64,000 nucleotides of DNA, taken from contig JBNGIO010006356.1 in assembly GCA_049999805.1 (NCBI GenBank), forward strand, positions 1 to 64,000. The letters are read 5' to 3'. Below, piece by piece: positions 4,448-61,912 of this stretch (position 1 is the first letter of the stretch; each line of letters opens with the position of its first letter). The notes beneath the pieces were generated by a model that saw only the letters and a program-made list of their open reading frames with translations, did no database searches and had not been told where the DNA came from. The DNA comes from Folioceros fuciformis (taxonomy: Eukaryota). Both the position numbers and the translations under genes were made by a program.

Positions 4448-9406
<4,959 letters not shown>

Positions 9407-11921
9407 GAAGCACAATCGGGAAGCCTGCCGGCTGGTACCTGCATAACGTGAGGGAATTCCATGAAAAGAACAATCCTCCTCCCTCCTGACACTGCAACAC
9501 ACAAGCTAGGCAAGTCGCAGACGCCCCCCATTCCTTCCCCTACCTCACTCAGCAGCCTGCAGTTGAGGTCATTCTCAAGGATTCCGTCTCCCTCCACGCT
9601 AAAATCGGGCAGTGAAAATCCGAGCCATCATGCCATCACCTGGACACGCGCATTCCGCAGCAGGAAGAGCGCACGCACCAAGAGGAGTGAGACGCAGGTG
9701 GCCAATGCACGGCCTGGACCGTGGAGCAGGCAATGACGAAGAAATGGCACAAGGCGCCCCACCCACTGCCCGGGAACCACACGCCAAAAAGGACGAAATT
9801 TCAACCATGTGCAGAAGGTATCTACACGGATAGCACACCTCCGCGCTCCCCTTCTTTCCCGCATCCGGTCGCAAGCTGTGAAATTCCGAGCACCCGTGCA
9901 AGGTCCTGCGCAGGTAGCTGAGACGCACCAGGCACTCTGTGCTAGAGACGAAAATCGATCAGCCCGACTTCCAAGGACAGTGGCTGGTGATGGACCCTTC
10001 CCTGGTCATGTGCCCGCACCTCTCGCCCCTTCGAGATCTCACATCCACCTCCCCGTGCGGTGCGGTAGCCATTGCAAGCCAATTCCCGTTGACCCAACGT
10101 CCATCGTCGGGTTCTCCCCACCGCAGGATACATACTCATATACATAGCCCGTGGCAGATAAATTTTATTCGGATGCACCTCCATTCCATAATAAGCCATG
10201 ACAGCCTGAGAGCGGCCACGTGTGAAAAACGTTATAAAAATCAGGTGAAAATTATCCTTCCGAACTGCTGCAGCATGCGGATACAAACCGGTACACCGAA
10301 TCTGCGGCAAAGCCATCATTTTCTCCCAAATTTGGGAAGGAAGGGGTATTTAAAAAAAACGAAAATGAATTCGAGCCTCCGAGGCTTGCGTCGGGTACAC
10401 CAGACATAATTGGCTTGAAGTCGCCGAGCTCGGGGGCTTCACGTCAAGGGGGGCAACACAGGTGTGCCACAAGCGTTTTCTAATGCTGGCTGCAATTGTT
10501 ACACAAAGGAGGGGCCCGTCGGCTTGTCCGCTTTGAAATCAGGAACGGAATGGGCCCCATGTGGCACGGCCACAGCATAGGTGCGGAATGTAGCCACTTC
10601 ATGCCAGCCCAGGCGCCAACCCGATACAAGACTATTACACTACATTGTACATGCGTGTTTAGGAGTGAGTATCGAGGCCCCAGTGGATCCAGCTTCAGTG
10701 AAAGGTGTGTTTGGGTAGTCACTAGCCAGTCGAAGAGCGAGGAGGTGGGGTGCTGCCCACATTCCAAGATTCTGGGACAAAGTCGGGTGTGACATTTCAG
10801 GACACACATAGCAGGAGGGCAGGCANNNNNNNNNNNNNNNNNNNNNNNNNNNNNNNNNNNNNNNNNNNNNNNNNNNNNNNNNNNNNNNNNNNNNNNNNNN
10901 NNNNNNNNNNNNNNNNNNNNNNNNNCGGGGGCTGTTGAGCATAACGTGCCTGCGGTTGAGTGCTGCACCTACTGTGCGTACGGGATCTGGTTCCATGGTG
11001 TCAGCACTGTGGAATTCTAGCGTACTGCGCATCACCGTCGACTGCCACCTTGCTTACATGATGTCGACTCCTCATCGTCCTACGCAGACACTGTGGTGCC
11101 GTTTGGGAGTCGGAACCATTTGCATGACGAGGTTGCCCGCCTCGCTAACGTGAATGCGACGCCTGTCTTCGTATTAGCCAAGAGTACATGGAACTTGGAA
11201 GGTACATGATATTTGAAGGAGCTCAAGAGGCGTGAGAATCTGGATCATTCGGTTGGGAAGGAGAAATAGAGGAATCCCAAAGGTTGTTAAGTAGTCTCCG
11301 AATTCAAGGGGTGCAGGAGGGGTGGAAGACTAAGTTGATGAGAAAAGCCCTTGGAAGGGGAAATTACAAGGAATTAGGCAGCAAGTGCATTACATTGTGC
11401 CCTCGGAGGACATTCAATCAGGATAACAGGTAGTCATATGTTTCGTTGTTAAGATTTTAGTAAGCTTTGAAAATATTGATATATTCTTGTCCAGATTATC
11501 GTACCCGTACCCTACCCTGCCCCTGTGAGATAAACCTGTGTTTCCATATCTGTATGTACTGTAAGTACAAAAGAACTTACTGAAGCGTAAACGCAAAAAG
11601 TTACAAAGGCTTGGCCAACCGCCCGAGTGTTGAGTCATGGTCCTGGGACACCCAGGCAGCCCGTGATCCCAGCGACGAGCTATGCACGCCGTGAGGACTG
11701 TTTGTGCAGCGTGCGGAGCAGTGGCGTGAAACAAGGAGAAGGAAGCGTCACCCAATCCTTCCTCCCTTCGGTTCAAAACTGAGGAGCCAGGGGAATGGCC
11801 GGGCCGCCATTGCAACGGGACGATCCATGGCAGCGACTGCAGCCGCGGCCGCAGCGGCAGAACTGGTGGCGGCGGGGGCCACGGATCGTTGACGACGGCT
11901 GCCAGAGGGGAAGGAAGAGCA

Positions 11922-17069
<5,148 letters not shown>

Positions 17070-18412: not shown

Positions 18413-21400
18413 TTAGGGACGACCCTTACAACTGCAGGAACCGTTTACGAAACGATGCACCCGGTATCCATCCCTCACGACAATGTCTCTCTGTTCGAGC
18501 CTTGACATGATCTCAGTGGAACTGTGGCAGTCACCGCACATGCGTAGGTTTTTCGTTACCATCAGGGTTGTCCCGCTCGGAGTGTTCAAGAGACCAAACG
18601 CCAGAGCTAGCTTCTCAGCGTGACCACAAAGTGCATCTTCTTTTTCGTTTTCAGATAGCGGCTTCAGTACCAAGTTAGTCTGAGGCAAGTGGCCTCCTTC
18701 CTGCTTCAGACGGGCATTGGTGCTCTTGACCTTAAGAGCTATATCTTCTCTCGTTTCTCCCACCACAAACCGATGTATCTGCTTGTTCACCTCGATGGTC
18801 GTGACTGCAGGTTTCTTGTTAGCTCCTGCTACCCTTCGCTGTGTTTCAATCTTGTCTACATCGGGCCACCTACCTGCATCTGCGTAGGCGTTGGCCATGA
18901 GAACATATGCAGTCGCATCCTGGGGTTCCAGCCTAACAATCCTTTCAAAACACCACAAAGCCCTGTCTACATCCCCGTGAATTTTGCAGGCATTCAACAA
19001 AGACCTCAAGCCCACGACATTACTCTGCCCCTCACATGACAAAAGCATCTTCTCCGCCTCCTCTAAATGGCCAGCACGCCCAAGAAGATCAATCATGCAG
19101 GTGTAATGCTCAATAGTAGGATTGATGCCGTGCCGTTCAGCCATGGAATCAAAGTGTTTGCAACCCTCGTGGACCAGGCCCTCATGACTGCAGGCCGTTA
19201 GAAGGCAAGTAAAAGTAGCTTCATTAGGCCGAACACCGGCCATTAACATCTCGTCAAAACAACCTAGTGCCTTGTGACCTTCATCACAAGCACCATACCC
19301 AGCAATAAGCGCTGTCCATGTCACCACATCCCTTTGGGTCATGCTGTCCAAAACGTGGCGTGCCTCTTCCAGTTCACCACATTTCACATACATGTCCACC
19401 AGGCGGTTGCCCACCACTACATCATCCAGCAGTCCCCTGTCGACAATCTGTGAGTGCAGTTGCCTGCCCTTCTGTAACGCACCAGAGCTTCCACAGGCCT
19501 TCAGAAGACAAGAGAAAGTGACATGGTCAGCCAAACCAAGGTCCGCCTCCTCCATTTGTCCATACACAGCAAGCGCCTCTTGGCCGAGTCCCTGCTCTGC
19601 ATACCCGGCAATCATTGTATTCCATGTCACCACATCTTTTGTGGCCATGTTGTCAAAAACATGGCGTGCATCTTCCAGTTCACCACATTTTGTATACATG
19701 CCCACAAGGCAGTTGCCCACCACAACCTCATCCAGCAGTCCTCTTTTGACTATCTGTGAGTGCAGCTGCATGCCCTTCTGTAAGGCACCACTGCTTCCAC
19801 AGGCCTTCAGAAGGCAAGCAAAAGTAACATGGTCAGCCAAAACGAGGCCGGCCTCCTCCATTCGTCCATACACAACAAGCGCCTCATGGCCTAGTCCCTG
19901 CCGTGTATACCCAGCAATGAGAGCATTCCATGTCACCACATCCTTTGTGGCCAAAGTGTAAAAAACCTGGCGCGCATCTTCCAGTTCACCACATTTTGCA
20001 TACATGTCCACCAGGCAGGTGCCCACCACTACATTATCCAGAAGTCCTCTTTCAACAACCTGTGAGTGCAGCTGCATGCCTTTCTGTAAGGCACCAATGC
20101 TTCCACAGGCCTTCAAAAGGCAAGCAAATGTAACATGATCAGCCAAAATGAGGCCCTCCTCCTCCATTTGTTCATACAGAACAAGTGCCTCGTGTCCCAG
20201 CCCTTGCTCGGAATACCCAGCAATCAGCACCGTCCATGTCACTACACTCTTTGTGGCCAAGCTGTCAAAAACCTGGTGTGCACGTTTCAGTCTGCCACAT
20301 TTTACATACATGTCCACCAGGCAGCTGCCCACCACCATGTTCTCTAGCAGCCCTCTTTCGACAATCTCTGAGTGCAGCTGCATGCCCTTCCATAAGGCAC
20401 CAGTGCTTCCACAGGCCTTCAGAAGACAAGCGAAAGTAACATGGTCAGCCAAAGTAGGGCCCGTCTCCTCCATTTGCTCATACACACCGAGCGCCTCTTG
20501 GCCGAGACCTTGCTGCGCATACCCAGCAATCATGACATTCCATGTCACCACGTCCTTTACGGCCATGCTGTCGAAGACCTGGCGTGCAGCTCCTACTTCG
20601 CCACATTTTGCATACATGTCCACCAGGCAGTTGCCCATCACAACGTCATCCAGCAGTCCTCTTTCAACGATCTGTGAGTGCAGTTGCATGCCCTTCTGTA
20701 AGGCACCAGTGCTTCCACATGCCTTCAGAAGGCAAGTAAAAGTGACATGATCAGCTAAAATAAGGCCCGCCTTCTCCATTTTTCCGTACACAACAAGCGC
20801 GTCTTGGCCTCGTCCTTTCTGCGAATACCCAGCAATCAGCGCTGTCCATGTCACCACATCCTTTGTGGCCAAGCTGTCAAAAACCTGGCGTGCATCTTCC
20901 AGTTCACCAAATTTCGCATACATGTCCACCAGGCAATTGCCTACCACTACGTCATCCAGCAGTCCTCTTTCAACAATCTGTGCGTGCAGTTGCATGCCCT
21001 TCTGTAAAGCACCAGTGGTTGTACAGGCCTTCAGAAGGCAAGAAAAAGTAACTTGGTCAGCCAGAATGGGGTTCGCCTCCTCCATTTGTTCATATACAAG
21101 TAGCGCCTCTTGGCCGAGTCCTTGCTGTGCATACCCAGCAATTAGGACATTCCATGTCACCGCATCCTTTGTGGGCAAGCTTTGAAAAACTCGGCGTGCA
21201 TCCTCCAGTTCACCACATTTGGCATACATGTCCACCAGGGAGTTGCCCAAAACAACATTACCCAGCAGTCCTCTTTCGACAATCTGTGACTCCAGGTGCC
21301 TGCCCTCTTTTAAGGCACGAGTGGTTGCACAGGCCTTAAGGAGGCAAGCAAATGTCACATGGTTAGCCAAAGTGAGGCCCGCATCCTCCATTTGTCCATA

Positions 21401-22852
21401 CACAGCAAGCGCCTCTTGTCCGAGTCCTTGCTGTGCATACCCAGCGATGAGGGCGGTCCATGTCACCACATTCTTTGTTGCCAAGCCATCAAAAACCTGG
21501 CGTGCATCTCCCAGTTCACCACATTTTGCATACATGTCTAGCAGGCAGGTGCCCATCATTACGTTATCCAGGAGACCTCTTTCAACAATCTGCGAGTGCA
21601 GCTGCCTACCCTCCTGTAAGTCTCCAGTGCTTGCACAGGCCTTCAGAAGGCAAGAAAAAGTGACATGGTCAGCCAAAATCAGCCCTGCTTCCTCCATTTG
21701 TCTATACACCGCAAGTGCCTCATGTCCGAGCCCTTGATGGGAATACCCAGAAATCAGCACGGTCCACGTCACCACATCCTTTGCCTTCATGCTCTCAAAA
21801 ACCTGGCGAGCGTCTTCCAGTTGACCACATTTTGCATACATGTCCACCAGGCAGTTGCCAACAATCAAATTAGTAGGAATGCCACTCTGCACTACATCAC
21901 AGTGCACTTTCCTGCCAGACTCCAAGTCAGCGGCAAAAGCACAAGCTTGAAGGACAGCTACAAAGACGTGAGCATCAGGTTGCACTCCCGACCTGCACAT
22001 CTCATGGTACAATTGTACGGCCTCATTAGGCTTCCCATGCTTAGCGTATGCGGAGATAATGGAAGACCACATGAAGGCATCCGGTTTCCCCACTCTGGTG
22101 AGCACATTCATGGCCTCCTCTAGCCTTCCTCGACATGCATACATGCGTAAGATATGGTTCCCCAAGTATGCATTCGACTCGTACCCAAGTTGGACACAGA
22201 GGTCATGAACTCGTCGTCCCACAACCAGATCCTTCTTAGCTATACATAGTTTCAGCACAGTATAAAACAGAGACAGAGAAACAGCAGAGTCTGTCTGCGC
22301 CAGAGATTCCAGGGCTCTAGCGGCCTCAGCAAGCTTCCCCTGCTGACATAACAAAGGCACGGTTCCAGCCGTTACGACACCCAGTTCCGATCCTGCACGC
22401 CTCCAGGGTTCAGGATTATCCGGGGAGCTGGTCTCAGAAGGGGAGGCAACATGGCCCATCTGGATATCCAAGGAAATGAGCTGCTCATCAACCCAAGCTG
22501 GCTTCAACATGTTGTTTAACCACAGGACCTCGCCGGACCCCTTACGCCTGAAGTCAGGCGAACGGGAGCCCTTCTTGTCTCGTCTGTTATCCCACCACAT
22601 GGAAGGGTTCAGAAAAAATTGTTGCCACAAGTGCTCTTGCTCCTGGCGACGACCATCCTGGGAAATCCCTTCCTCACCCACACATTTCATGGGAAGCGGA
22701 AGCGCTGGGCTCCTTACACACCTGCACCTGGCGGCATTGTTTGCAACGGATTCAGTCCCTACAGTGAGGTGAGCTGGAGCTCCCAGCAGAATCCCAGTAA
22801 ACACACCAAGTTGTTGGGTCCACAACGGGTCCGCTTGCCACACGGTGGCCAT
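18413..22852 (-). CDS. PLS-class pentatricopeptide repeat protein with E and DYW:KP (GRP-ending) domains and an N-terminal PDF motif; candidate organellar RNA-editing factor
   Basis: Intronless 1479-aa ORF with about 32 P/L/S motifs and E motifs. The C-terminal domain has a KKPAVTTIEV box, HAEKLA and CGDC zinc ligands, and ends HRFVNGSCSCKGRP. The N-terminus carries WWDNR..K...SPDF. Confidence 0.95.
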   Translation of the reverse strand: MATVWQADPLWTQQLGVFTGILLGAPAHLTVGTESVANNAARCRCVRSPALPLPMKCVGEEGISQDGRRQEQEHLWQQFFLNPSMWWDNRRDKKGSRSPDFRRKGSGEVLWLNNMLKPAWVDEQLISLDIQMGHVASPSETSSPDNPEPWRRAGSELGVVTAGTVPLLCQQGKLAEAARALESLAQTDSAVSLSLFYTVLKLCIAKKDLVVGRRVHDLCVQLGYESNAYLGNHILRMYACRGRLEEAMNVLTRVGKPDAFMWSSIISAYAKHGKPNEAVQLYHEMCRSGVQPDAHVFVAVLQACAFAADLESGRKVHCDVVQSGIPTNLIVGNCLVDMYAKCGQLEDARQVFESMKAKDVVTWTVLISGYSHQGLGHEALAVYRQMEEAGLILADHVTFSCLLKACASTGDLQEGRQLHSQIVERGLLDNVMMGTCLLDMYAKCGELGDARQVFDGLATKNVVTWTALIAGYAQQGLGQEALAVYGQMEDAGLTLANHVTFACLLKACATTRALKEGRHLESQIVERGLLGNVVLGNSLVDMYAKCGELEDARRVFQSLPTKDAVTWNVLIAGYAQQGLGQEALLVYEQMEEANPILADQVTFSCLLKACTTTGALQKGMQLHAQIVERGLLDDVVVGNCLVDMYAKFGELEDARQVFDSLATKDVVTWTALIAGYSQKGRGQDALVVYGKMEKAGLILADHVTFTCLLKACGSTGALQKGMQLHSQIVERGLLDDVVMGNCLVDMYAKCGEVGAARQVFDSMAVKDVVTWNVMIAGYAQQGLGQEALGVYEQMEETGPTLADHVTFACLLKACGSTGALWKGMQLHSEIVERGLLENMVVGSCLVDMYVKCGRLKRAHQVFDSLATKSVVTWTVLIAGYSEQGLGHEALVLYEQMEEEGLILADHVTFACLLKACGSIGALQKGMQLHSQVVERGLLDNVVVGTCLVDMYAKCGELEDARQVFYTLATKDVVTWNALIAGYTRQGLGHEALVVYGRMEEAGLVLADHVTFACLLKACGSSGALQKGMQLHSQIVKRGLLDEVVVGNCLVGMYTKCGELEDARHVFDNMATKDVVTWNTMIAGYAEQGLGQEALAVYGQMEEADLGLADHVTFSCLLKACGSSGALQKGRQLHSQIVDRGLLDDVVVGNRLVDMYVKCGELEEARHVLDSMTQRDVVTWTALIAGYGACDEGHKALGCFDEMLMAGVRPNEATFTCLLTACSHEGLVHEGCKHFDSMAERHGINPTIEHYTCMIDLLGRAGHLEEAEKMLLSCEGQSNVVGLRSLLNACKIHGDVDRALWCFERIVRLEPQDATAYVLMANAYADAGRWPDVDKIETQRRVAGANKKPAVTTIEVNKQIHRFVVGETREDIALKVKSTNARLKQEGGHLPQTNLVLKPLSENEKEDALCGHAEKLALAFGLLNTPSGTTLMVTKNLRMCGDCHSSTEIMSRLEQRDIVVRDGYRVHRFVNGSCSCKGRP

Positions 22853-23286
22853 AGTTTAGCTACCGCTGTCGGAAGATGGTTCCAACAACAGATAATGGCA
22901 GGATGCCCAGGTCCTGTGCACGATGACACCATACGGGGCTGGTTCTCATGAACACGGGCCGAACCCGACGGCCTTACATCCAAACAAATCTGCGGAGGTG
23001 CACAACTACACCAAATAAAATAGTCCAAGCCGAGATCTCAGACATGCCGATACAGAGATGAGCTCCCATAATTCCACGACCGGGGCATTCGTTGTGCTTC
23101 ATGAAGCATCGACCGGGCAGCGGCCACTACAGACTCCCCGTTCATGTGAACTGGTGTCCGCTGTCAAACGAGGCCCGGACGAAACCGTTCCCACCAAAAC
23201 GGTCAAATGGGATTCCCTTGAACCCGTTCCGTACAGAGCACCAAACTCTCTGCTCTCGGCCGTGATGCGACTCCGGGAGAAAAGCG

Positions 23287-23467
23287 AGTTTGGCTCCTCG
23301 GTGCTCACAGGTGCTAAGATGGTACCACCTACTGGAAACTGTTAAGATATTCAAAGTTGAGTCGATTCAGAAATCTAGTTTGGCTCCTCGGTGCTCACAG
23401 GTGCTAAGATGGTACCACCTACTGGAAACTGTTAAGATATTCAAAGTTGAGTCGATTCAGAAATCTA
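23287..23467. repeat. Perfect 90-bp tandem duplication
   Basis: agtttggctcctcggtgctcacagg...gattcagaaatct starts at 23287 and 23377. The ORF track shows the duplicated peptide LAPRCSQVLRWYHLLETVKIFKVESIQKS. Confidence 0.95.
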
Positions 23468-23739
23468 TGATGTTATGAAGGTCGGCAACCTCTATGGTTG
23501 ACCCAGAGACCCAACCAAAGGCTATCATAGCTAATGTGCTCATGTGAAGCCTTCTGCTTATCTCTAGATAAGTAACACAGGCCAACAGTGCGATAGAGAT
23601 TTTAAACTTTGAGAATATGTGGTGTTTTATACAATGTGAAAGCTTCATTTGACAAAGGTCCCTTAGATAAGAGATGGCCACACCATTAATGGTATGGTGA
23701 CCAATGAAAAGTGATTGATCAATGAAAAATCCTACCCAC

Positions 23740-25108: not shown

Positions 25109-26582
25109 TCAGAAGAGCAAGGGCTCGCCATTGATGTAGAGCAATTCCTCCTCTCCCTCCCTGTGATAGTAAACATTCTTGGTGCGGTCGAGATGTCGGT
25201 CGGGATGTACGAGGATCGCGGTTTTGGTGCGGTCAGGCTTGATCCCGCGATGAAAGGACTGAAGCACGTGGTCGGTTCGGTCCGCCTGCTTTCGCACCAA
25301 GTATCGAGCGGGATTGTGGTCATCGATGAGCTGCGGCGCGGGCCCAATGAATTCTTCCCGCCCGACATCGCATGTGGTGATGAAGGACTGCCGAGATCGA
25401 GTTCCAGCCGCAACTCTGTGGTACACCGCGTGGCACTTACCGTTGCTCAGAGTCTGCCATGTTTAATTGCAACGCATCCATGAGTCAGACAGACTTGAAG
25501 GCGGGCGGATCTTGCTAGCGCAATGTTGGCGAGCACGTTACCTCCATGTCCTCTCCGATGGTGAAGAGCGCGCGGTCGAGCAGCGGCGGCACGGTGAACC
25601 ACCCGCCGTCATGGAAGACCTCCAAGCCCGGCACGCCGTCGGCGACGTGGAAGTCGAAGAGGTTGCTGTCGGTGTGCGTGGGCAGGCCCACACCCTTTCC
25701 CTCGCCTGGGGGCCGGGCCAGGCGGCTGGCCAACACAAGGTTGAGCAGCAGCGGCCCGTAGGTGTCGGAGATGTAGGACTCTGACAGGCCCAGCCCCTCC
25801 GTGAGCAGGCCTCCCAGGAAGTGCGCCGCCGCCAGGATCCGGTCCCCGTACAGCGACATCTTCTCCCTGAAGCTGGGGAGCGCAGGAGGCCAGACCTTCT
25901 CCACTCGGTGGGATTCCGGGAGCACTCGGAGGCGGAACACCTCTCGAATCTTGGGCTCCGGCAGCGTTGCTCCTAGTGTGTCGGCGGCGTCGCCACCGAA
26001 GTCGACGCCGTAGCCGTAGGTACGCCCGTCGTTGATCTTCAACGTCGCTCTCGTCTTCACCTTCTCCTCCAGGGGCTGCGAGAAGAAGCGGAGGATTTCG
26101 GCCCGAACGTCGGCCAGGAGGGCCTGGTCCACGCCGAAGTTGGAGATGTAGAACAATCCTGTCTCCGCGCCCGCCAGCGCCTGCTCCACCAGCTCCGCCC
26201 GCCGCGCTGGCGACGGCTTCAGGCCTTCCAGATCCAGCGTCCTACCGACCAGCTCCTTCTGCACCCTGCTCCACTCGGCAGGGTCTTTCAAATCCTCTGC
26301 CGCCTCTTCCCTGACGGTCACGGCCATCCCACCAGCGGATGAGCTCGCTCGCCATCGGGCAACATGCCGCCGTACAGGACGCCCTGAAAGAACGAGCCCG
26401 GCATTGCCATCACGCCCGTATGCAGTGCGCCATTCCTTCAGCGATGACGTTGCAGCAAGTAGCGGTGAGGGTGCAGACCCACCTCCATAGTGTGCCTGCG
26501 CCGTGGGATGACCTTGGTGGGCGTCGCCAGAATTCTTGCCAGAGGTACAGAATGGGAACAATTGTTGGGGGTAGAGGGCCAT
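25109..26582 (-). CDS. 2-oxoglutarate/Fe(II)-dependent dioxygenase (DOXC-like), 2 exons
   Basis: Exon 1 runs 26582-25542 (GLFYISNFGV, FFSQPLEEK, HTD, PGLEV, IGEDME). A GT-AG intron follows. Exon 2 runs 25453-25109 (TLSNGKCHAVYHRV...RSRQS). HxD...H and RxS are intact. Alternative ATG at 26327. Confidence 0.9.
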
Positions 26583-30620: not shown

Positions 30621-32742
30621 GCCGTATTTAGCTCTGCAAATCGGAGCCAGAGGCAGGGTTCCAGTGATTTAGCATCATGTTGCACGATTTGGTTTTGTTT
30701 GGAGTGTACACAAAGATGTGCACCCGGACACGTTTAACAACACGTGCCCGATACCTTCGTTTCAATGTTGAGTGACAGGACTCAAAAACCTTTGTCGGGT
30801 GACAGTTAGCTCATTGCATCTCAAACCGACTCTAAGACTTGTACATGATGGCATCGCTGTTGCAGAATGCTTGAACCGGTTGGGCTTGTTGCAAAACTTC
30901 GAGTGCACTAGCCTGATGAAAACTCCGCGATTTCATACTAGAACGACGGAGCGAAGGGAGAACGATGGAAAGAGAGCTCGGAGTCAACTGGAGAGCATGC
31001 AGGCCAAAGCTTCTGTCAGGATCAATGCTCTTGACATCTTGTCTTCTTCTTCTACACCCAGGAAGAGAAAGAAGTCAGGTTATGCGTGGTAGCCGAATCT
31101 CAGGTCTGGGCCACGTGACATCAAGAGAAGATTCCGGATCCTGATCTGCTCTGAGATAAGAGGCCGCTGTCTCCGCCGAATTTATGCACTTCACAAATGA
31201 CAACTGAGGTCCTTCCTGTGCTCCGGGCACAGGACGAACGTGTATGCTCCAGTCCATCCGGCTGGCAGCAGTCATGAATCCAGCAGTCCATGACCATCAT
31301 GAAAGATTTTGTGAACGGATACTACTTGAAATGGTTACAGACGCGGGCACCGAGACACGCTTACAACTGCGAGCTGAGCCTCGTGTAGGGTGACTGACAT
31401 CTGCCAGTAGAGTAGATAGACCTACCAATCCTTTGTAAAGCCACGAAAAAATGCAGAGAGTAGTAACTATCAAACCTCGGAAAACTTTGCGAGCTTTGCT
31501 GGATTTAGCTCGCACTGCAGATTCAGCTTGCGTCTTCTCATTGTCATGTACATGCACACACCCCATGATAGACGGAATGTTTGCTTTCTTGCATGCTCGC
31601 TCCACAAGGATAATTAATACCTTGACCAAAGGATCGTTGGCTGAATGTGTACCTCCACACAACAAACAACCTGGAGACGTGAGTCCACGTCTCCAGGTTG
31701 ACAGTCAGAGTAGGAGTCTCATGCTGAAGTAATCCAACTGTCCATCAGTAAAAGGGACCCGAGAGCAGTCCCATCCCTGTACCATTGGGGCGGCTGAAAT
31801 CGACAGGGGAATTACCACACTCAAGCTGTGCAAGTCGCGGGTGAGAACAACAGAGGTCACGGTTGAACTTTGGTGAAGAACCGTTGTGAAGGTCCGTGTC
31901 CAGGGTTCAGCCTCACCATCTGGAAGCTGTAGGTAGATGTAACGAGGTACACAGTATCAACAACATCGTGGCGCTCCAACACATGAATGTCCCTCCCCTG
32001 TACAGCAGGTGGTACCAGGTCTGAAGTTTACTTCTCGGGTATGGGATAATCTGACTTTCTGAAACAGAGCCACCAAATATCTCTCCAACTGTCGATTACA
32101 ACTTTGTGTTCAAGTGGTCGGTGAAACCCCTCACGATGTCGTCACAACTTTGTTTGAAAGACTGGATCAGGGAGGGTGTGGCAGCTGATTGTCGAAAGGT
32201 CATGAAGGAACGGGAGAAAGTTGTCTTCCTTGGCCACACCTTTTGCTCAAGAGGAATAACCGTCTGGAATGACGGCATTCACCCAGGATGGACCGGTAAT
32301 CAATTCAGAGGCCTGAAACTAATGTGAGTCTCTGGCCGAAGCCCGAGAGTGATCCGCAAGTTCAACCTGGTGCATTCAAAACATGAAGCCATCCAACAAA
32401 TGTACATTGCTATCGTCCTCGACAGTCAAGTGCACGAAAGGGGATAGTTCAGTCTACACACTTAGACACAGGAGACTCTCATCAAACTCGCCAGGCAGTA
32501 GACAAACGAACAGCCCAGGTGTTATTGACCACCAAGACTCCTTGCAGATGTCTGCTCATCTGCTTTCACGAATCGGTCTACACGTGCAACGATATCAATC
32601 AATGTACAGCCCAGTCTTCCTCCTCCTTCTTGGGCTCTGCGCTCAAATGGCACAACCATAGAAGGTTCAATTTCAAATCACCATCCAATTAGTATAGAAT
32701 GCAGAGTAATTAGGTCAGAGAGGGATTGGAAGGCAGGAAGGG

Positions 32743-33667
32743 TTAAGAAACCATCGTGTAACTCTGCGAGCAAGCATACCCAACCAACATCCCCAAGCAC
32801 GCTCCTGCAGCTACTTGCAAAGGCGTGTGCCCTAGCAGCTCTTTCAATTTCCTTTGACTGATGGGATGGCCTTGGAACAAATCCTCCACAATTATGTTCA
32901 GTATCTGTCCAACAAAGCCACCGGGGTTCAGTAAAACCCTGGGAACGGGAAACCCAGAACCAGGACCCCAAAAAAACCCAAACGCGAGTGAAACCCACCT
33001 CCGCCTGCATCCCAGCATGCCGTCTCACTCCAGTCGCGTCGTACATGACAATAAGGCTAAATCCCAGGCAAACAGGGAAGAGGGCGTCGCTCACACCGTG
33101 ACAGAGTGCCACGGACGTGGTCAACCCAATACACAGAGCGGAGTGCGAGGACGGCATTCCCCCAGACCCGATCAACATTTTCAAATCCCACCTCCGCTCC
33201 ACGAAATACGTAGTGAACACCTTCAAGGTCTGCGCCAGCGCCCAGGCCAGCATCCCCGACATGAAGATAGGGTTGGCGCGCAGGGCCTCAATAAAGGGAC
33301 TGATGTGGCTCCTGGCCACAGCCGACGTGCTGAGCAGGGCCAGCCCCAGACTCCCCTGTCTGCTCAGCGTCTCCCGCACCTCCTTCTTCCAATCCGTGCT
33401 CTCCTCCTCCTTACTCTGCCTCCGAAACCTAACAGCCCCCCGAGACCCAGCCACCAGCGGGTGCTGCTGCTGCCGACGCTGCTGCTCCTGCCACGACGTG
33501 CGCAGAATGCGCACCACAGGAAGAGGCAGGGGCCAGGCACGCATCGCCATCGCCTGGAGGCAGGGCGCGCAGGGCAGCGAGCCCCTGCTCTGGGCCTGCT
33601 CCTGCTCCAGCCTCCATACCTCCGCTCCTGCTGCCGCTCCCTGGACGCTGGCAGCCAGGTTGGCCAT
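32743..33667 (-). CDS. DUF212 / acid phosphatase-vanadium haloperoxidase-related membrane protein, probable plastid transit peptide
   Basis: Motifs GGMPSSHSA, VMYDATGVRRHAGMQAE|ILN and LKELLGHTPLQV. Exon 1 33667-32999, exon 2 32904-32743. Confidence 0.9.
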
Positions 33668-47700: not shown

Positions 47701-50315
47701 ATGAAGCCAGGCGTACACCCAGACCCCGAGCTCGAGGAATACGTGGCCACGTCCCGGGGGCTTATTGAGGCCGTACTGGCATCGGACGAGGCCGCAGTCT
47801 CCGCATCTCTTGAGAACAAGTACTGTGACGTTAACTATAAGGGAACCTTCAGCTTCCGAGTCAAGTTTGCAGATTCTGTGCAACATGAAGAAGCGGCAGA
47901 TGAAGTCACCATTGGGTACGAGCAGTTCAAGCAGGATATAACACCGCTGTTTGCTGCTGCTCACGTTGGCCACATCGAGATTGTCAAGAAATTGGTGGTC
48001 AGTGTCTGCCGTTCTACTCTACCCAGAGTCAAACACCTTGGACAGCATGTCTTTCACAATCTTTGTACTTGTCATCTTGTTCCTGCCATCCTGTTTACTC
48101 CCTGCTAATTGCACACTAACACGCAGAGTGATGCCTCCCTTTCTTGCCCCTTGTTTATCGTCAGGCGGCAGGAGCGGATGTGAACGAGAAACACTTTCGT
48201 GGTTACTCCACAAGTGCCGCTGTCAGGGAGGATCATTTTGAAATACTGAAGATCCTTCTCAGAGCAGGGGCTCAACAGCCTGCCTTAGAAGCTGCTCTTC
48301 TAGAAGCTTGTCTGTTTGGACGAGCAAAGGCAGCCGAGCTTCTGATAAGCTCAGAAATGATTCGCCCCGAGATTTTAGCCCAGGGATTTGTACATGCAAG
48401 CAGCCGTGGTTTTGTTGACACAGTTGCGACTTTGATTTCGGTACAAATCTCTACTCCTTCCCTCTTATTTTGCTGTATATCATGAAGGCCATCACTAACG
48501 TGTGATGTGTCTTGCCTGTCTGTAGAGTGGAGTGGATGTGAATTTAATCCATAGATATCTTCTTCGGTCAGCAAAACCTTCTCTGCATGCCAACCTGAAC
48601 TGCACACCTCTTGTTGCTGCAATAGTCGCACGACAAGCCTCTGTGGTGAAGTATCTCTTAGAGGTAAGCTATAAATCCACCCTGAAGAACCATTCAGCAC
48701 TTTTCAACTCTACGGTGCGGGCCGCTCATTGCTCGGGTGCTGGTTCCTATTTCCTGTGCAGGCAGGAGCGAAAACTGATTGCCTTGTTACCCTTGGCGCA
48801 TGGTCGTGGGATGCTGGCTTCGGGGAGGAATTGCGTGTTGGAGCCGGGCTATCAGAACCTTACAATGAGGCGTTCTGTGCAGTGGAATATTGGGAGACGA
48901 ACGGTGACATCTTGCGAATGCTCCTTCAGCATCTGTCACCCGACTGTGCATCGAATGGTAGAACGTTGCTCTGCCATGCCATTCTCTGCCGGAACGCCCC
49001 TGCTATCAAGGTCCTCCTGGTAGCTGAAGCTGATGCAGATCGCCGTCTACACACAAAGGACGGTCACGAGTTTCGCCCGCTTCATTTAATAGCAAAAGCT
49101 GGATTTACAGAGGGCCTAAAGCTGTTTCTAGCTCATGGGTGCAACATGAATGTGATAATGGACAATGGGGATACACCCCTTATGGTAAGTGCCAGGTGCA
49201 AGCACAGGGATTGTCTGAAAGAACTTTTGTACGCCGGTGCTGATTTCGGGCTGCTCAATAGAGATGGTCACAGTGTGATGAGCATTGCTGAAGCAAATGG
49301 AAGTGGATCCCTGTTGAAGGTCCTTGTGTGGGATGCTTTAAGGGCTGGTCAACCTATTTATTCCAGCGATCCGCAGGTGTTCTCGTCTTTGCACATGGTT
49401 GCCCGTAAAGGTGATGCTGCATTGCTTCAGAAGGTGCTGCAACAACCTAATATTAACCTCGACTCTAGAGATAAGTATGGCTATACGGCAGCTATGATAG
49501 CTGCACAGGAAGGGCAGATTGAGCTGTTTAAATTGCTCGTATTTGCTGGGGCAAATATCGGTCTGAAAACTAGGAAGGGGGAGACTGCTATTGCACTGGC
49601 CCAAGGGAAAGGGATTGTAGAGGGCTTGGAATGGATTCTTTTAGATGCTATCATGGCCAACATTTTGAAAGGTGAGGATTTTAAGCCTCTCCACTTTGCT
49701 GCCCGTCGGGGGCATCTAGAAGCCTTGTCTCAACTGTTGCAAAGAGTAACCAGCATTAATTCCTGGGATGATGAAGAGTACACCCCCTTGATGTACTCAG
49801 CCAGGGAAGGGCATGTGGAGGCTTGTAAGCTTTTGCTTCTTGCTGGGGCAGATTACAGTGTGACGAACTCCAGAGGGGAAACTGCGTTATTGCTCGCAAG
49901 AAAGAATAGCTCATCCAAAGCGGCGGAGGAAGTCATTCTTGACCACCTGGCTAGAAGGTTTGTCATCATGGGGAGCCAGGTGTATAAGTATGTTAGGCAA
50001 GGCAAAGGGAAACCTCACGTCAAGTCTCTCCGTATCACGAAGTCTGGTGTGCTGACTTGGGGTGATTCCAAGAGACGCAATGTGGTTTGCAAAGAAGCAG
50101 TCCTCGGTTCAAGCTCTACTTTCCAACGGAATCGTAGGCACAAGGGAGACCCACACAAACCTGAGCTTTTTATGGTCATCACAGTCTCAGGTAGGGAGAT
50201 ACATTTTGAAGCACCCTCTGCTTCCAACGCCGAGCTGTGGGTTAGGGGTATCAACCTGGTCGTTAAAGAGGCAGCATCCTCAATCACTGCTGTATCTGCG
50301 AAGTACCCGCACTGA
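47701..50315 (+). CDS. Ankyrin-repeat protein with a C-terminal PH-like domain (plant-conserved family), multi-exon
   Basis: Multiple ANK consensus repeats (TPLFAAAHVGH, GDTPLMVSA, GYTAAMIAAQEG, PLHFAARRGH, YTPLMYSAREGH). C-terminal GKPHVK...GVLTWG...IHFEA...AELWVRGINL is PH-like. Confidence 0.9.
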
Positions 50316-54849: not shown

Positions 54850-57515
54850 ATGTCATTCCTCGTGCGCGACTGCTGTGATGCGTCTTGTGCCAAGACCGTA
54901 AGGCTCACGGAACTGACTGCTCCTCGCTCTCTCGATGCCCTTGCTGTTCCACTCTCCCCCTTGGTGAGCTTCCACGGCCGTCTCCGTAGCGTGTGGAGCA
55001 GGTGCACCTCGGGGCAGAGCTCCGCAGAATGTAGAGCCTGGAGCAGGCCTCGGGGGTATGCGTCCTGGAAAACTGTATTCGCCTCTGCATCGGCCGCGCC
55101 GCAGCGAGGTCTCCAGGCAGATGGAAGCAGTCCCCTTGCCGAGAAGGCTAGGCTGGAGGAGATCCACAGCTTCATTTCATTACCGGCATTGGCATCCAAA
55201 ATATCTGGCCGGCCCACTCTCCTGGACAGACAGGCGAATGCGCTGGAGGGCTCTGCTAATTTCTCATGGCGGGAGCGGGCTGAGGCTATGAATGGGCTGC
55301 TGGACTTGCTGGAGCAGGAAGGGGTTCATTCCGCATATGCCTTTGAGTTCGTCCGTTATGCCGGGGATTTGGTTGATTTGCTCATCATTGAGGCCAAGGA
55401 GTTCTTCGGCAGCTACTGTGATGCCCCTCCGTTGGCGTGCGGGAATGGCATCGACTCGCAGTCTTCGGACGGCCATGCTGGGACCCGGTTGGCAGCAGAG
55501 ACTGTTGGAGAACGTGGCTCGCACGCTGAACGAGACTTTCTGCCCTTGTTGGATATGAGGAGGCTGAAAGACCTCGATGTGCATCCGGTTACACTGGATG
55601 ACAACATAACCAGACCAGCACTTCCTCTCAGCGTTAGTGTTGCAATCATTGCTGGCAATCTTGGTTTATCGAGGCTGGCTTTGTACTTTCAACAGATAGG
55701 CATGAGGGCCCCTGATCTCTCCAAGCTGCTCCCGTTTGTAAGCCGGAACATTGACGACGTCATGGCCAAAGTGGAGTTTTTGAGAGCCATCGGAGTCCAG
55801 ATTGCCCAGCTTCCGCAAATTCTCACAAGGTGTCCACAGCTGCTAACTTTCCAATATGAACGGCTTGCTCCAGTGGCAGAGTATTTGAGAAGCCTGGGCT
55901 TGTCAGATACTGAGATTGGGAAGATAGTGACAAAGACGCCACAAGTTCTAGGTTGCCAGTTGGAGGAGTTGCTCGAGACTGTGCAGTATTTCGACCACTT
56001 AGGTGTTGCCTCGGGAGACTTCAAGAAACTGGTCGTTCGATATCCTATCCTTCTGACTGATGCTAAGTTCCGGGTGGAGTCGCTGATTGCCTTTCTGGAG
56101 GGTATAGGCGTACAAAAGAAGCACTTTGGGGGACTACTGAGACGAAGGCCCGTGCTACTGGAGAGCAATATAGAAAGGGATTTGATGCCAATAGGGAATT
56201 ATCTCAAGGTCATCAATGCCAAGCCAGATGACATCGACAAGATTGTTACCTCGTTCCCAGGACTTTTTTGCTATGATCTTGAGCAGGTATTCTTTCCCTC
56301 GTGCCTGTCCTCTCCACCAGTTAACTCCTTTTCTGATAAAGCTTTCTTTGGTTTGCTGCCCCGCTTGTGCTGCGATAGGACTTCAAGCCAACTGTTCAAC
56401 ACCTCCAGAGCTTGGGAGTAGAACTAGCCCTCATGGGCAAGCTGTTTAGAAGGCATCCTCAGTTGCTAAGGAATCGGCACAGCTTTCTTCGTCGAACAGA
56501 ATACCTTCTCAGCTTGGGGCTCGATCGCAACGACCTTGGTAAGGTGGGTAACTGCCTTGCATGTCGTTTGACATTCGTCGTGTAGTACATCATCTGGTCG
56601 GATATCAGATTTCTGTGGCTTTGCTTTGTTGAATGGCCGTTGGTTGCGTGCACCAGGTTATTTATAATGCACCTCAACTGCTTGGTCTAAGTGTGGAGGA
56701 AAACATGATGCCAACTGTGCAGTTTCTGCATGACATAGGTGTTGAAGGGCCTGGCTTACTGAAGGTATTAACATTGCTGCTAGAAAGTTCTAGAGCAAGT
56801 GATAGGATGTACGCATGTCCGTTCTCATGCTGTGATTTGTCCACGCTGGGCAGGTTCTCAGATTGAAGCCCATGATACTGGCACATAACGTGAACTCTAA
56901 GCTTCAGCCAAATTTGAGATACCTTGCAAGTATTGGGATCAAATCTCGAGATCTTGCCAAGTAATGGACTCAACACTGCTTTCATTTTTGAAGCACAACT
57001 TTTCTCGTTTATGTCGTCAGCTGAGGATCTGTGGTTGACAGGCTAGTCACACGTCATCCACAGCTGCTCACGTTAAGTGTGGAAAATAATCTCATTCCAA
57101 CCGTGAAGTTCTTCCACAACCTTGGGTTCAGCAGGTGGGCTCATGGTGATGCTCTTCTTGCTCCTTCAACAGGTTTGGTCTCTAGTGTGGTTGACAAGCT
57201 TGAGAGGGCTGCCTGGATGGTTGCAGGTCGGAAATCGCAGAGATGGTAAGGAGATTACCCTCCCTTCTCGGATTTAGTGTGTGCACAGCTTTGGAGCCCA
57301 AGTACAAGTACTTAGTTGATGACATGAAAAGGTCCCGGCAGGAGGTGGTTCAGTTCCCTCAGTTCTTCAGTTATAGTCTATCAAAGCGCATAGCTCCCAG
57401 GTTCGAACGTCTTGGGTTAGGGCAACTGCTCTGTTCCCGCTCGCTAAATAGCATCTACGGCTGTAACGATGCAGTGTTTGAAAGGAAGTTGCGCAGGTGG
57501 CATTCCACCTTATGA
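54850..57515 (+). CDS. mTERF family protein (organelle-targeted), multi-exon
   Basis: Repeated mTERF motifs (KVEFLRAIGV..ILTRCPQLL, VAEYLRSLGL..KIVTKTPQVLG, LIPTVKFFHNLG). C-terminal FPQFFSYSLSKRIAPR. Ser/Arg/Ala-rich N-terminus. Confidence 0.9.
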
Positions 57516-57855: not shown

Positions 57856-59370
57856 TCACTCTATGGTGACCTTGCTGCACACGCGTACTAAAGACAGCAC
57901 TCTGAAAAAGAAGTCGTCGGCAGCTGCATCGCATGTCTTCATCATCTGAGTAACTTTCACTGCCAACCGTCGAAGTGAGGGGCAGCATTTGATAAACGAG
58001 TGCAAAGTTGCGAGTTTCTGATCCCCGTTTAGAGGGGACCTGATCGTCACCCAGACCTCTTCAAGGCAGGAAAATCTGGTCATGGGAGTGACCTGCGAAC
58101 GTGGGTTGTAGATTTAGAGTCTGCAATAGATGAGAAAAACAGTGGCAATGGCATAATTAGAGAATTTAGAGGGTCAAAGGCGGGAGAGAGAATTTCTGAC
58201 CTGCTTCAGACTGGACTTTTGTGCCAATGCCGCAAACATCGCACCTTGTGCTTCAAACACCTTGAGCTTCGGGTGACTGGCAAAGAAATTAACGATATCA
58301 ATTTCTGGAAAGGGCTCCATCTTGTCTCCATCCCCGCAAAACTCCACCCGCATTCTGAGCTCCCGGATCTCCGTGGCCGACTGTAAAACAGTGGTTATGG
58401 AGTCCCAGGACCACTGCACACCTCGAAGTGACAGTGACTCCAAATTGGATAGTCTTCCCACCTCAAGCTTGTGAACTTTGCCTGCTCCGTCACAAATCCA
58501 AATCAAACATTACAGACGTGTGCAGGGATACTCCAGAATATCCGCGCGATTGTAGCAAGGAAAATAAGCCTTACCGACGCTGTTCGCCAATGATAGTTGC
58601 CGCAAACACAGGGTATGCCTGAGGCGCACCCAACAAGCACCTTGGATCTCACAGACTTGTAGACGTGGACAGCTAATGGTGACAAAGCAGTCCCCACCTG
58701 CGCAAAGGTCCAATCTGCACTCGAGAAGATGCTCGAGCTCCACTGACAGCACTCGAACACCCTGGCATCCGAGCAGAGTCAACCGGGACAAGATGGGACA
58801 GGCACGGAGAACGTTTTGCAACACACTCTCCTCGAACAGGGCCCCGACGATCTCCAATGTCTTCAGATTACCGAATGAGCGCAAGTCATGGGGTTGCTGC
58901 GTGAAGAGAACACCCCATAGCCGAAGCGTTTTGAGGTGCAGGAAGTGTGCAATACAATCCAGCTTGCTTACACTTGCCGTGGCCGGCCTCTTGTCCCCTA
59001 GTTCATCCAGACGCAATTCCAAGGTTTCAAGCGAATTCTTGGCGTGCGAAATCCATGCGAGCATACTGTCATTGGAGAAGGGGCAGTAGACGACGAGCTC
59101 TTGGAGGCACGTCGTCCGTAGAACCATACGGGTCACAATGCCATCACTGCTCCTGTTCCGATCCTCATCACAATTTTCCCCGGAAGAGCGCTTCACTTCA
59201 TTGCTCACGTTCCTGGCGAAATAGAGTCGATAACCTTGGCACATGGCCTCTTTCCATTTCTTACAAACACATGAGCAAGCTGCCACATCTCTTGCATTAT
59301 GAATGAAACTTAGCATATGCTGCACAACGGCGTCAGGCAAAACATCCAGCACGCCGTCATCTCCTTCCAT
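57856..59370 (-). CDS. F-box/LRR (RNI-like) protein, 3 exons
   Basis: N-terminal F-box LDVLPDAVVQHMLSFIHNARDVAACSCVCKKWKE followed by LRR-like repeats (LQELVVYCPF, LKTLRLWGV, LESLSLRGVQWSW). Ends KVTIE-TGA. Confidence 0.9.
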
Positions 59371-60754: not shown

Positions 60755-61912
60755 CTAAGCCTGTCCACACTTTCGGAGAGATCGTAACCCCTCTTCCTCA
60801 TACTCGTGCCTGCTTATCCAGAACTCTGGAGTGTCCTTCATGATGTCTGCCAGGACGGCACCTCCAAGGTATACCAAGTGCTTACGACGAGGGGGATCCT
60901 CAATTCTGAGCCTCAGCTTGGAAAGACCGTCCTTGTTCCCCTTGAGGACAGTGTGAAGATAGCGTTCACGGATCTCCTTCTCCAGCCTGCTGGGCAGACC
61001 AGGGTACATGGTGCTCCCACCGCTGAGGACGATATGTTGGTACAAAGTCATGCGATTGTCAATATCCATCTCCTGGATGCACCTGAAAACAAGGTCTGCC
61101 AAACCATCTCCTTCCACATCGATGAGCTCTGGGGTGAAGAGAGCTTCAGGGGCCTGGAAGCGTTCGGCACCAACCTTGATGACCCGACCGTCAGGCAAGG
61201 TGTACTGCTTCACCAGGATGGTTGTCTCCAAAGCAAGCCTCATCTCCCGCTTGTAGTCGATGCTCATGTAGCAAAGCTGCTCCTTGATTTCCCGCACACT
61301 CTCCAAGTCAGCTGTTCTATTCAAGGAGTATCCTCTCCTGAGCAGCAGGTCCAAGAGGTACGAGGTGATCTGCCTCCCAGCCATGTTCATCCGCTTGGTG
61401 AGGTGAGGAAAGGAGAAGCCATCCACCACAGGCACGATATGCGTCACACCGTCGCCCGAGTCCACAACAAGTCCAGTCAAGAGCCCCTGCGCATACAGTG
61501 TGAGCACCGCCTGAATTTGCACAAAAACAGCTGCGAAGTTGTACTTCTCGAACATGGTTTGCACCATCCTCTCCCTGTTCTTGATAGGGTTGAGAGGCGG
61601 GTCCGTGAGCAAGATCTTGCATTCGGAAGGCTCAATTTGAAGCACCTCATGGAATGTGTGATCCCACACTTGGCTCATATCATCCCAATTCTGGATGACT
61701 CCCCTGGATATGGGGTACGAAAGCTCCAGCTGATGCCGCAGCTCTTGGCAGCTGTTGCCTACAAACACTCCCTTGGAATCATGGTCGTCCTCCCGGGGCG
61801 TGGAGCGTCCCACCATACACGGGAAAACTGCTGTAGGGAAGTTGTCTCCAGCGAAACCGCACTTGACGAAGCCCGTCCCATTGTCGCACACAATCACGTC
61901 GTGCGCACCCAT
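60755..61912 (-). CDS. ARP2: Actin-related protein 2 (Arp2/3 complex), intronless
   Basis: 385-aa single ORF with [72 protein letters not shown] and IEDPPRRKH, all diagnostic of ARP2. Confidence 0.96.

Follow-up and report, generated by a model that had tools for sequence, protein, structure and literature searches.

The window – the whole 64,000-nucleotide stretch of Folioceros fuciformis DNA under analysis (positions 1 to 64,000 of contig JBNGIO010006356.1) – carries on its minus strand an open reading frame of 1479 amino acids plus stop (18413..22852), in which translation and Pfam indicate no intron and whose first ATG is preceded, two codons to the 5′ side, by an in-frame TAA. The order of its parts, all on that strand, is a disordered N-terminus, a single PDF motif, a linker, a PLS-type PPR array, an E motif and a DYW:KP domain. 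The first 60 residues (22673..22852) form a putative organelle presequence, judged by composition – just 2 acidic residues in aa 1-54 – and by predicted disorder (pLDDT <50). The PDF motif (aa 72-130; 22463..22639) is enclosed in a folded module delimited by AlphaFold2 (aa 65-131; 22460..22660), and a flexible linker rich in Ser and Pro (aa 135-157; 22382..22450; pLDDT <50) leads from the module to the PPR array.

The array itself spans aa 164-1291 (18980..22363) and is recognised by Pfam as 21 PPR stretches (PF01535, E 1.4e-166); followed as it is by an E motif (aa 1292-1354; 18791..18979; PF20431, E 1.3e-14), it is of the PLS class. Period analysis finds within it, again on the minus strand, a tandem array of PLS triplets (19294-21859) with a period of 306 bp, or 102 aa, in 8.4 copies with 82% matches. 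The C-terminus is a 133-aa DYW:KP domain (aa 1347-1479; 18416..18814; PF14432, E 3.1e-33). The marks described for such domains are KP replacing the PG box, HAE, Lys88 and Met92 (PMC9478123, PMC11845758); that of the window begins with KPA, contains K88, M92 and the HxE...CxxC zinc site of DYW-type deaminases as H65-A-E67 and C93-G-D-C96, and ends ...CSCKGRP, which assigns it to the GRP subgroup described for hornworts (PMC9478123) and bears out the DYW:KP assignment of the initial annotation. Read from its sequence, then, the locus encodes a PLS-class PPR protein with a GRP-type DYW:KP domain; the gene is nuclear and has no intron. Designer domains KP2 and KP3 were constructed from GRP sequences, and GRP-type proteins are regarded as candidate U-to-C editors (PMC9478123, PMC11845758); we propose that the product belongs to this class of candidate U-to-C organelle RNA editors. 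In its PLS array, its E motif and its 133-aa KPA...GRP domain with HAE, CxxC, K88 and M92 it resembles the PPR-DYW:KP GRP proteins. It differs from them in the N-terminal PDF module, of which the accessible parts of the same two papers make no mention (PMC9478123, PMC11845758).

In OSB proteins the PDF motif is a stretch of about 50-55 aa with a conserved Pro-Asp-Phe, which follows the OB fold (PMC6963530). The initial annotation had based its recognition of an OSB-type motif on a peptide, LWQQFFLNPSMWWDNRRDKKGSRSPDFRRKGSGEVLWLNNMLKPAWVDEQL, that is indeed present on the minus strand as aa 75-125 of the ORF, although its upper coordinate, 22635, was placed 5 nt too far: the codon for L75 starts at 22630 and that for L125 ends at 22478, and the plus-strand frame of 22478-22635 encodes unrelated sequence and a stop. 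The Pro-Asp-Phe signature is found as P99-D100-F101 inside aa 72-130, within the wider pattern LW..FF.NP..WWDNR..K.....PDF..K..G..LW.....P.WV. Against a profile of 59 model positions, made from 200 PDF instances in OB-fold-containing (OSB-architecture) proteins alone, aa 72-130 scored 71.4 bits (E 1.9e-24; model positions 2-58), the OB proteins of this profile having been fetched using the window's own motif. Shuffling of aa 1-200 (2000 shuffles, 1508 of which yielded a score) reached at most 8.2 bits, and we reject a chance match. All 13 columns that are invariant in an alignment of 32 sequences – W, P, W, D, R, K, PDF, LW, P and W – are retained in the window's protein, and the six frames of the window contain one PDF motif only, that at aa 72-130.

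Pfam has no family for the PDF motif, and from aa 1-251 it yielded sub-threshold noise alone. Nor did the ESM Atlas provide a usable match to the motif region, and in word-indexed protein searches with that region none of 11 and none of 16 scored candidates passed. The word-indexed blanks reflect a limit of sensitivity, because an exhaustive phmmer search of 1.84 billion representatives, with a 61-aa stretch as query, yielded 630 matches at E<=1e-3, of which 165 reach E<=1e-10. The best 150 of the 630 comprise 80 proteins with an OB fold and a PDF motif, 61 with the motif only and 9 PPR proteins; four matches (P0103, P0107, P0121 and P0122) are labelled OSB1 or OSB2 by their sources. On this evidence from sequence we regard the identity of aa 72-130 as a true OSB-type PDF motif, claimed at the outset, as confirmed.

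[quoted passage not shown] It shares with OSB proteins a motif of about 50-55 aa, the invariant residues and a full-length profile match. Whereas the motif stands C-terminal to the OB fold there – the OB fold precedes it in 82 of the 83 OB proteins of the collected set – here it stands N-terminal to a PPR array, so that its partner is an RNA-reading array with an editing domain. In keeping with what had been proposed, motif and array occupy the same uninterrupted ORF, at aa 72-130 and from aa 164 respectively. After LW, its loop exceeds that of the OSB consensus by 2 residues.

Modelled by itself with AlphaFold2, the PDF module attains a mean pLDDT of 92.3 and a pTM of 0.78, and consists of a helix, a small three-stranded sheet and a second helix. 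The same elements recur in a model of aa 1-330, in which the module is flanked by disordered stretches (aa 1-60 and aa 135-157, pLDDT <50) and the first PPR helices begin at aa 164. The motif is thus predicted to fold as an independent small module, tethered by a flexible linker some 25-30 aa long that differs in length and sequence between homologues. Comparison of the model with the PDB by Foldseek gave no match at E<=0.001 (best E 5.1), and with VIA-align the top Z over 48,161 chains was 4.3, inside the stated noise range; both results are silent on the novelty of the fold. A sequence profile search of the PDB found matches to the OSB rows within their OB part and none to the PDF columns. 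The predicted module is compact and exposes many aromatic residues.

The arrangement seen in the window is not confined to it. At least 19 further PPR proteins have one to three PDF motifs, their named sources being the ferns Adiantum, Ceratopteris and Pteridium and the lycophytes Selaginella and Diphasiastrum; recurrence of the fusion in relatives, on which the original proposal depended, is therefore upheld. Examples are Selaginella XP_024517303, Adiantum KAI5076972, Ceratopteris KAH7429238 and Diphasiastrum P0157-P0166, all annotated merely as hypothetical or PPR proteins. Like the window's protein they are collinear – presequence, PDF, linker, PLS array – and in the best cases their motifs are 53-62% identical to its own; in all 20 PDF-PPR proteins, that of the window included, every PDF motif precedes the first PLS match. 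They differ in carrying one to three copies of the motif, and in ending with an E motif only or with a DYW:PG domain, never with DYW:KP. Of the 20 proteins, a set for which 150 of the 630 library matches were inspected, one has a DYW:KP domain (the window's), four, all from Diphasiastrum, have DYW:PG, and 15 have no DYW domain, although some of these 15 are truncated gene models and several of the PDF-PPR matches are short. A fusion specific to DYW:KP, raised as a question at the outset, is rejected by these numbers.

The PPR-linked motifs equal OSB motifs in score against the OSB-only profile. On a motif tree of 60 columns, for which the bootstrap has not settled, they cluster together: the labels change 3 times, where shuffling gives 27.4 changes on average (none of 500 shuffles was as low). 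The window's motif shares a starred clade with motifs from ferns and from two Logan proteins. Because the collinear layout is common to fern and lycophyte PPR proteins whatever their C-terminus, it is a family trait and not a one-off fusion: in seed-free plants, PLS editing-type PPR proteins seem to have in the PDF module a conserved accessory that has so far escaped notice. In motif identity, architecture and conservation, taken together, we have high confidence.

That the architecture had not been described was also part of the initial annotation, and our search agrees: no paper was found that joins PDF motifs and PPR proteins in the literature covered, though fusions of this kind could appear in the supplementary tables of PMC13386178 and PMC13393729. 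A kingdom-wide survey of editing-factor domain fusions from 2026 mentions neither OSB, nor PDF, nor single-stranded, and a survey of OSB evolution from the same year makes no mention of PPR. Since Pfam is without a PDF model, the module would escape domain surveys based on Pfam; a PDF profile built from OB-fold proteins would permit a simple census of PDF fusions. Natural editors of seed-free plants act with high efficiency on thousands of sites, and the engineering of PPR editing factors into programmable RNA base editors is under way. A conserved, putative single-strand-binding module built into the editor offers a concrete part for questions of affinity, site choice and placement at the nucleoid.

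What might such a module contribute to an editor? A PPR tract lies on its RNA with the protein N-terminus towards the 5′ side, and an N-terminal PDF module could therefore hold the strand just upstream of the specific footprint. We suggest that it would anchor single-stranded nucleic acid irrespective of sequence, supplementing the PPR tract. Its candidate ligands are nascent or 5′-flanking RNA on the one hand and exposed ssDNA of the nucleoid on the other; with either, anchoring would raise the local concentration of the editor and its dwell time at the target. There is a precedent for a plant organelle ssDNA-binding module that serves RNA metabolism in the Whirly proteins, such as maize WHY1, which bind organellar ssDNA, bind RNA too, and act in RNA maturation (PMC2532728); the analogy is functional only, Whirly proteins being of unrelated fold and family and acting in trans, unfused to PPR. 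By analogy with OSB1 and OSB2, which prefer ssDNA to dsDNA or RNA (PMC4166229), the RNA-clamping half of the anchor reading is argued against. Weighing these points, we put the chance that the module may have some role as a nucleic-acid anchor at about even, RNA and ssDNA sharing that chance roughly equally; to the best explanation as a whole, in which firmly placed motif and proposed function are blended, we incline by a little.

A rival reading, the leading idea of the initial annotation, is that of a nucleoid tether: the PDF module would bind organelle ssDNA – at transcription bubbles, R-loops, or intermediates of replication and recombination – and so tether the editor to the nucleoid for co-transcriptional editing, leaving contact with RNA to the PPR tract alone. 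Retention of all OSB-invariant residues in the PPR-linked motifs, and their undiminished scores against the OSB-only profile, fit this, as does the presence of one to three PDF copies in PPR proteins, which mirrors the one to five or more in OSB proteins and would suit avidity on long strands. The PDF motif of AtOSB1 is reported to suffice for ssDNA binding (PMC6963530), and the preference of OSB1 and OSB2 for ssDNA over RNA points the same way (PMC4166229). Against it, co-transcriptional editing is not known to require such a tether, and most PLS editors described from other plants function without one. We hold a tether to be possible, if somewhat unlikely. In its broadest form the argument would make PDF-PLS proteins an old, unrecognised class of editors in hornworts, lycophytes and ferns, coupled to the nucleoid by an OSB-derived ssDNA-binding module, so that C-to-U and U-to-C editing in these hyper-editing lineages would be largely co-transcriptional and part of the job of the trans-acting helpers of seed plants would be done in cis; this we consider an unlikely, speculative extension.

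If the module instead binds proteins, the PDF fold in its PPR context would serve oligomerisation, or docking to proteins of the nucleoid or editosome. AtOSB2 has been reported as a tetramer (PMC6963530), and the compact helix-sheet-helix prediction with its many exposed aromatics would lend itself to such a use; the fold comparisons, silent as they are on novelty, found no solved nucleic-acid-binding fold alike. However, ssDNA binding is the sole function given for the motif in the accessible parts of PMC6963530, PMC4166229 and the survey of OSB evolution, and its conserved residues, among which Trp, Phe, Arg and Lys abound, seem like those of many single-strand binders. Such a role in place of nucleic-acid binding is, in our estimation, improbable.

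The motif might also have no function at all, whether as a relic of exon shuffling, because translation starts at a downstream Met, or because it is lost with the transit peptide. Met85, Met115 and Met132 lie within or after it, and the PPR array seems to have been expanded recently through tandem duplication, so that the gene could be young. Conservation speaks otherwise: motif, position and the 13 invariant residues are kept across the window, ferns and lycophytes, and the fold is predicted with confidence (pLDDT 92.3). Sequence from related organisms adds to this. In all four of four public runs, whose contigs are of uncertain kind (DNA or RNA), 1166-1901 contigs per run match 21900-22925 at >=90% likeness, with, for example, 63 + 36 contigs over position 22505 in run X8; no contig from the four runs covers 22980-23500. 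The PDF-coding N-terminus is multi-copy in these organisms. Dozens of paralogous contigs retain the stretch, and among the 10 differences listed within the motif four are synonymous and none falls on an invariant column. Likeness among the paralogous contigs extends through the first ATG and ends about 20-70 nt upstream of it. A functionless motif is accordingly very improbable.

That the module lets the DYW:KP domain work on ssDNA by pyrimidine exchange we consider extremely unlikely: the juxtaposition of an ssDNA-binding motif and a deaminase-type domain is all that favours it, whereas 15 of the 20 PDF-PPR proteins carry the module without any DYW domain, the PPR tract reads RNA, and the DYW:KP literature, in the accessible parts of PMC9478123 and PMC11845758, concerns RNA only.

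A further difference between the window's protein and the PPR-DYW:KP GRP proteins lies outside the PDF module, in the PPR array: the anchors of its PLS triplets are spaced 102 aa apart, in an unusually regular run of eight.

The PDF motif is encoded on the minus strand, within an uninterrupted ORF of 1479 aa (18413–22852) recovered by ORF scan and translation of the window; an in-frame TAA lies two codons 5′ of the first ATG. The peptide LWQQFF...VDEQL corresponds to aa 75–125 and maps to 22478–22630 of that strand: the upper bound given in the initial annotation was therefore 5 nt too high, while every remaining detail of the observation was exact. Read on the plus strand, the frame of 22478–22635 specifies unrelated residues, one stop included. 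Pfam, which holds no model of the PDF motif, recognized 21 PPR stretches (E 1.4e-166), an E motif (aa 1292–1354) and a DYW_deaminase domain (aa 1387–1477, E 3.1e-33), with no match above threshold in aa 1–251. The motif, which occurs once across the six frames of the window, thus shares its ORF with the PPR array and precedes it, as had been proposed: in a structural model of aa 1–330 the PPR helices begin at aa 164.

Evidence that aa 72–130 comprise a genuine PDF motif came from an exhaustive phmmer search with aa 70–130 against 1.84 billion representatives, which returned 630 matches at E ≤ 1e-3 and 165 at E ≤ 1e-10. Domain classes were assigned to the best 150 of the 630 using custom profiles: 80 combine an SSB-like OB fold with 1–13 PDF motifs, 61 contain PDF motifs alone (many being short fragments) and nine are PPR proteins. 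Some matches are named OSB1 or OSB2 at source (Tanacetum, Drosera, Linum, Bidens), and Pfam saw an SSB domain in 10 of 30 submitted matches, seven of them above its cut-off. A profile built from 200 PDF instances drawn exclusively from OB-containing proteins matched aa 72–130 at 71.4 bits (E 1.9e-24, model positions 2–58 of 59); shuffled versions of aa 1–200 reached at most 8.2 bits with the same profile (2000 shuffles, 1508 scoring). Moreover, all 13 columns that are invariant in a 32-sequence alignment – W, P, W, D, R, K, P-D-F, L-W, P and W – are kept. On the profile score and these residues the original assignment to the OSB-type PDF motif holds. The protein is nonetheless not an OSB protein, since neither Pfam nor the custom profiles found an OB fold in it; in the whole set the OB fold precedes the PDF motifs in 82 of 83 OB proteins. 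Extremes of organization were also encountered: a Kingdonia uniflora protein (P0002, KAF6142360, 1160 aa) contains 13 PDF motifs, and one from Coptis chinensis (P0036, KAF9616283, 1526 aa) has an OSB-like N-terminus, with an OB fold and three PDF motifs, followed by a kinesin motor, a join that may be a merged gene model.

At the other end of the protein, the last 133 aa show a KPA start, H65-A-E67, K88, M92, C93-G-D-C96 and a terminal GRP. DYW:KP domains are described as distinct from DYW:PG at the PG box, in the active site and at the terminal triplet, with the alanine of HAE being KP-specific and Met standing at position 92; the KP proteins of hornworts are reported to form two subgroups, DRH and GRP (PMC9478123). 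Lys88 is reported as essential for U-to-C activity (PMC11845758). These features identify a GRP-type DYW:KP protein, in agreement with the editing-factor class first suggested, and the GRP type would suggest that the window derives from a hornwort.

The fusion is not peculiar to this gene. The nine PPR proteins among the best 150 of 630 matches, all with N-terminal PDF motifs, come from Adiantum capillus-veneris (two), Ceratopteris richardii, Pteridium aquilinum (two), Selaginella moellendorffii, Diphasiastrum complanatum and two Logan assemblies, one of the latter with three PDF copies. Searching with aa 1–330 yielded 12 proteins, 10 of them Diphasiastrum PPR proteins with 1–3 PDF motifs each; no PDF motif was present in the long Ginkgo and Bertholletia matches of that search or in an ENA protein. 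In the resulting set of 20 PDF–PPR proteins, which also counts the window's protein and a further cluster member from Selaginella, every PDF motif lies N-terminal to the first PLS match, and 12 members align collinearly through motif, linker and first PLS motifs. The fusion is thus conserved, at the level of sequence, across three seed-free plant groups. It is not tied to DYW:KP, contrary to what the initial annotation had led us to look for: four proteins, all from Diphasiastrum, end in a canonical DYW:PG domain (xGCSWIEV, HSE or HSV, CGDCH, GDYW), 15 have no DYW domain (E-type or truncated gene models), and DYW:KP occurs just once, in the window's protein.

The PPR-linked PDF motifs may have a single origin. 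On a motif tree with 31 PPR-linked and 80 OSB-linked members (the latter a random 80 from 200), built on 60 columns with the bootstrap not settled, the PPR label changes three times, compared with a shuffled mean of 27.4 and with no value as low in 500 shuffles. A starred clade (96/91, on the same 60 columns and unsettled bootstrap) unites the window's motif with fern motifs and those of two Logan proteins. A second clade, of lycophyte and some fern motifs, adjoins OSB motifs, including that of P0116, an OSB-type protein of Diphasiastrum complanatum with an OB fold and a single PDF motif. The position of P0116 hints, if faintly, that the host's own OSB gene was the source from which PPR genes acquired the motif.

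An AlphaFold2 model of aa 64–134, with the 32-sequence PDF alignment as input, gave a small, confidently predicted domain (mean pLDDT 92.3, pTM 0.78) in which short strands, arranged as a small sheet, lie between two helices. The module folds alike (aa 65–131) in the aa 1–330 model, where it is flanked by a disordered aa 1–60 (pLDDT below 50) that could be an organelle presequence, and a disordered Ser/Pro-rich linker (aa 135–157). Lying folded between disordered segments, the PDF unit is predicted to be an independent module, joined by a flexible tether to the N-terminus of the PPR tract, the end that in PPR–RNA complexes points towards the 5′ side of the RNA.

What a conserved, independently folded PDF module would do on a PPR protein may be judged by analogy with OSB proteins. 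In AtOSB1 the PDF motif is reported to suffice for ssDNA binding, while the OB fold seems non-binding (PMC6963530); OSB1 and OSB2 are reported to prefer ssDNA over dsDNA or RNA (PMC4166229), and OSB proteins differ in how many PDF copies they carry (PMC13393729). We infer that the module serves as a sequence-independent single-strand anchor. Its ligand could be either nucleoid ssDNA or RNA lying 5′ of the PPR footprint, and holding it would increase dwell time or local concentration; a copy number that varies from 1 to 3 fits an avidity device. Docking of a protein partner is a less likely role, as is the reading that the motif has no function in its PPR context. That the editing domain itself acts on DNA is very unlikely, because 15 of the 20 PDF–PPR proteins have no DYW domain.

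The PDF–PPR architecture, a conserved combination of two known parts, appears so far undescribed. The literature searched contained no link between PDF or OSB and PPR proteins, although an earlier mention elsewhere is possible: the words OSB, PDF and single-stranded do not occur in a survey from 2026 that covers domain fusions of editing factors, nor PPR in a 2026 paper on OSB evolution (PMC13393729).

Public sequencing data point to relatives of the gene's 5′ part. No public run shared half of the sampled words of the stretch, and none was recorded as RNA. When contigs of four runs from four studies were aligned to 21900–23500 at a likeness of at least 90%, 1166–1901 short contigs per run were placed, all between 21900 and ~22925, with zero cover from 22980 to 23500; similarity stops ~20–70 nt upstream of the first ATG. 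Many distinct contigs cover every place in the PDF motif (at 22505, for example, sequencing run X8 has A in 63 contigs and G in 36), and thus the PDF-coding N-terminus is multi-copy in these related organisms. Ten differences listed within the motif – four synonymous, six non-synonymous at five variable positions – leave the invariant columns untouched, a placement that weakly hints at constraint.

The PPR region itself contains a tandem array (19294–21859, minus strand) of a 306-bp unit (102 aa, one PLS triplet) in 8.4 copies with 82% DNA matches, the triplets being near-identical at the protein level. Such repeats imply that duplication within the array was recent and that the predicted RNA target is periodic; the long ORFs running antisense to it on the plus strand (20148–22123) are probably by-products of the repeat.

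Elsewhere in the window, which includes 210 N, ORFs match pieces of an ABC transporter (6431–12932), the N-terminus of a 2OG-type dioxygenase (25515–26582), DUF212 (32678–33667), ankyrin repeats (48918–50315), an mTERF protein (54850–56421), an F-box/LRR protein (58510–59370) and actin (60755–61912), a neighbourhood that fits a compact, gene-dense plant nuclear genome. Some 435–615 bp upstream of the PPR gene's start codon lies a perfect 90-bp tandem duplication (23287–23467; 2.0 copies, 100% matches).
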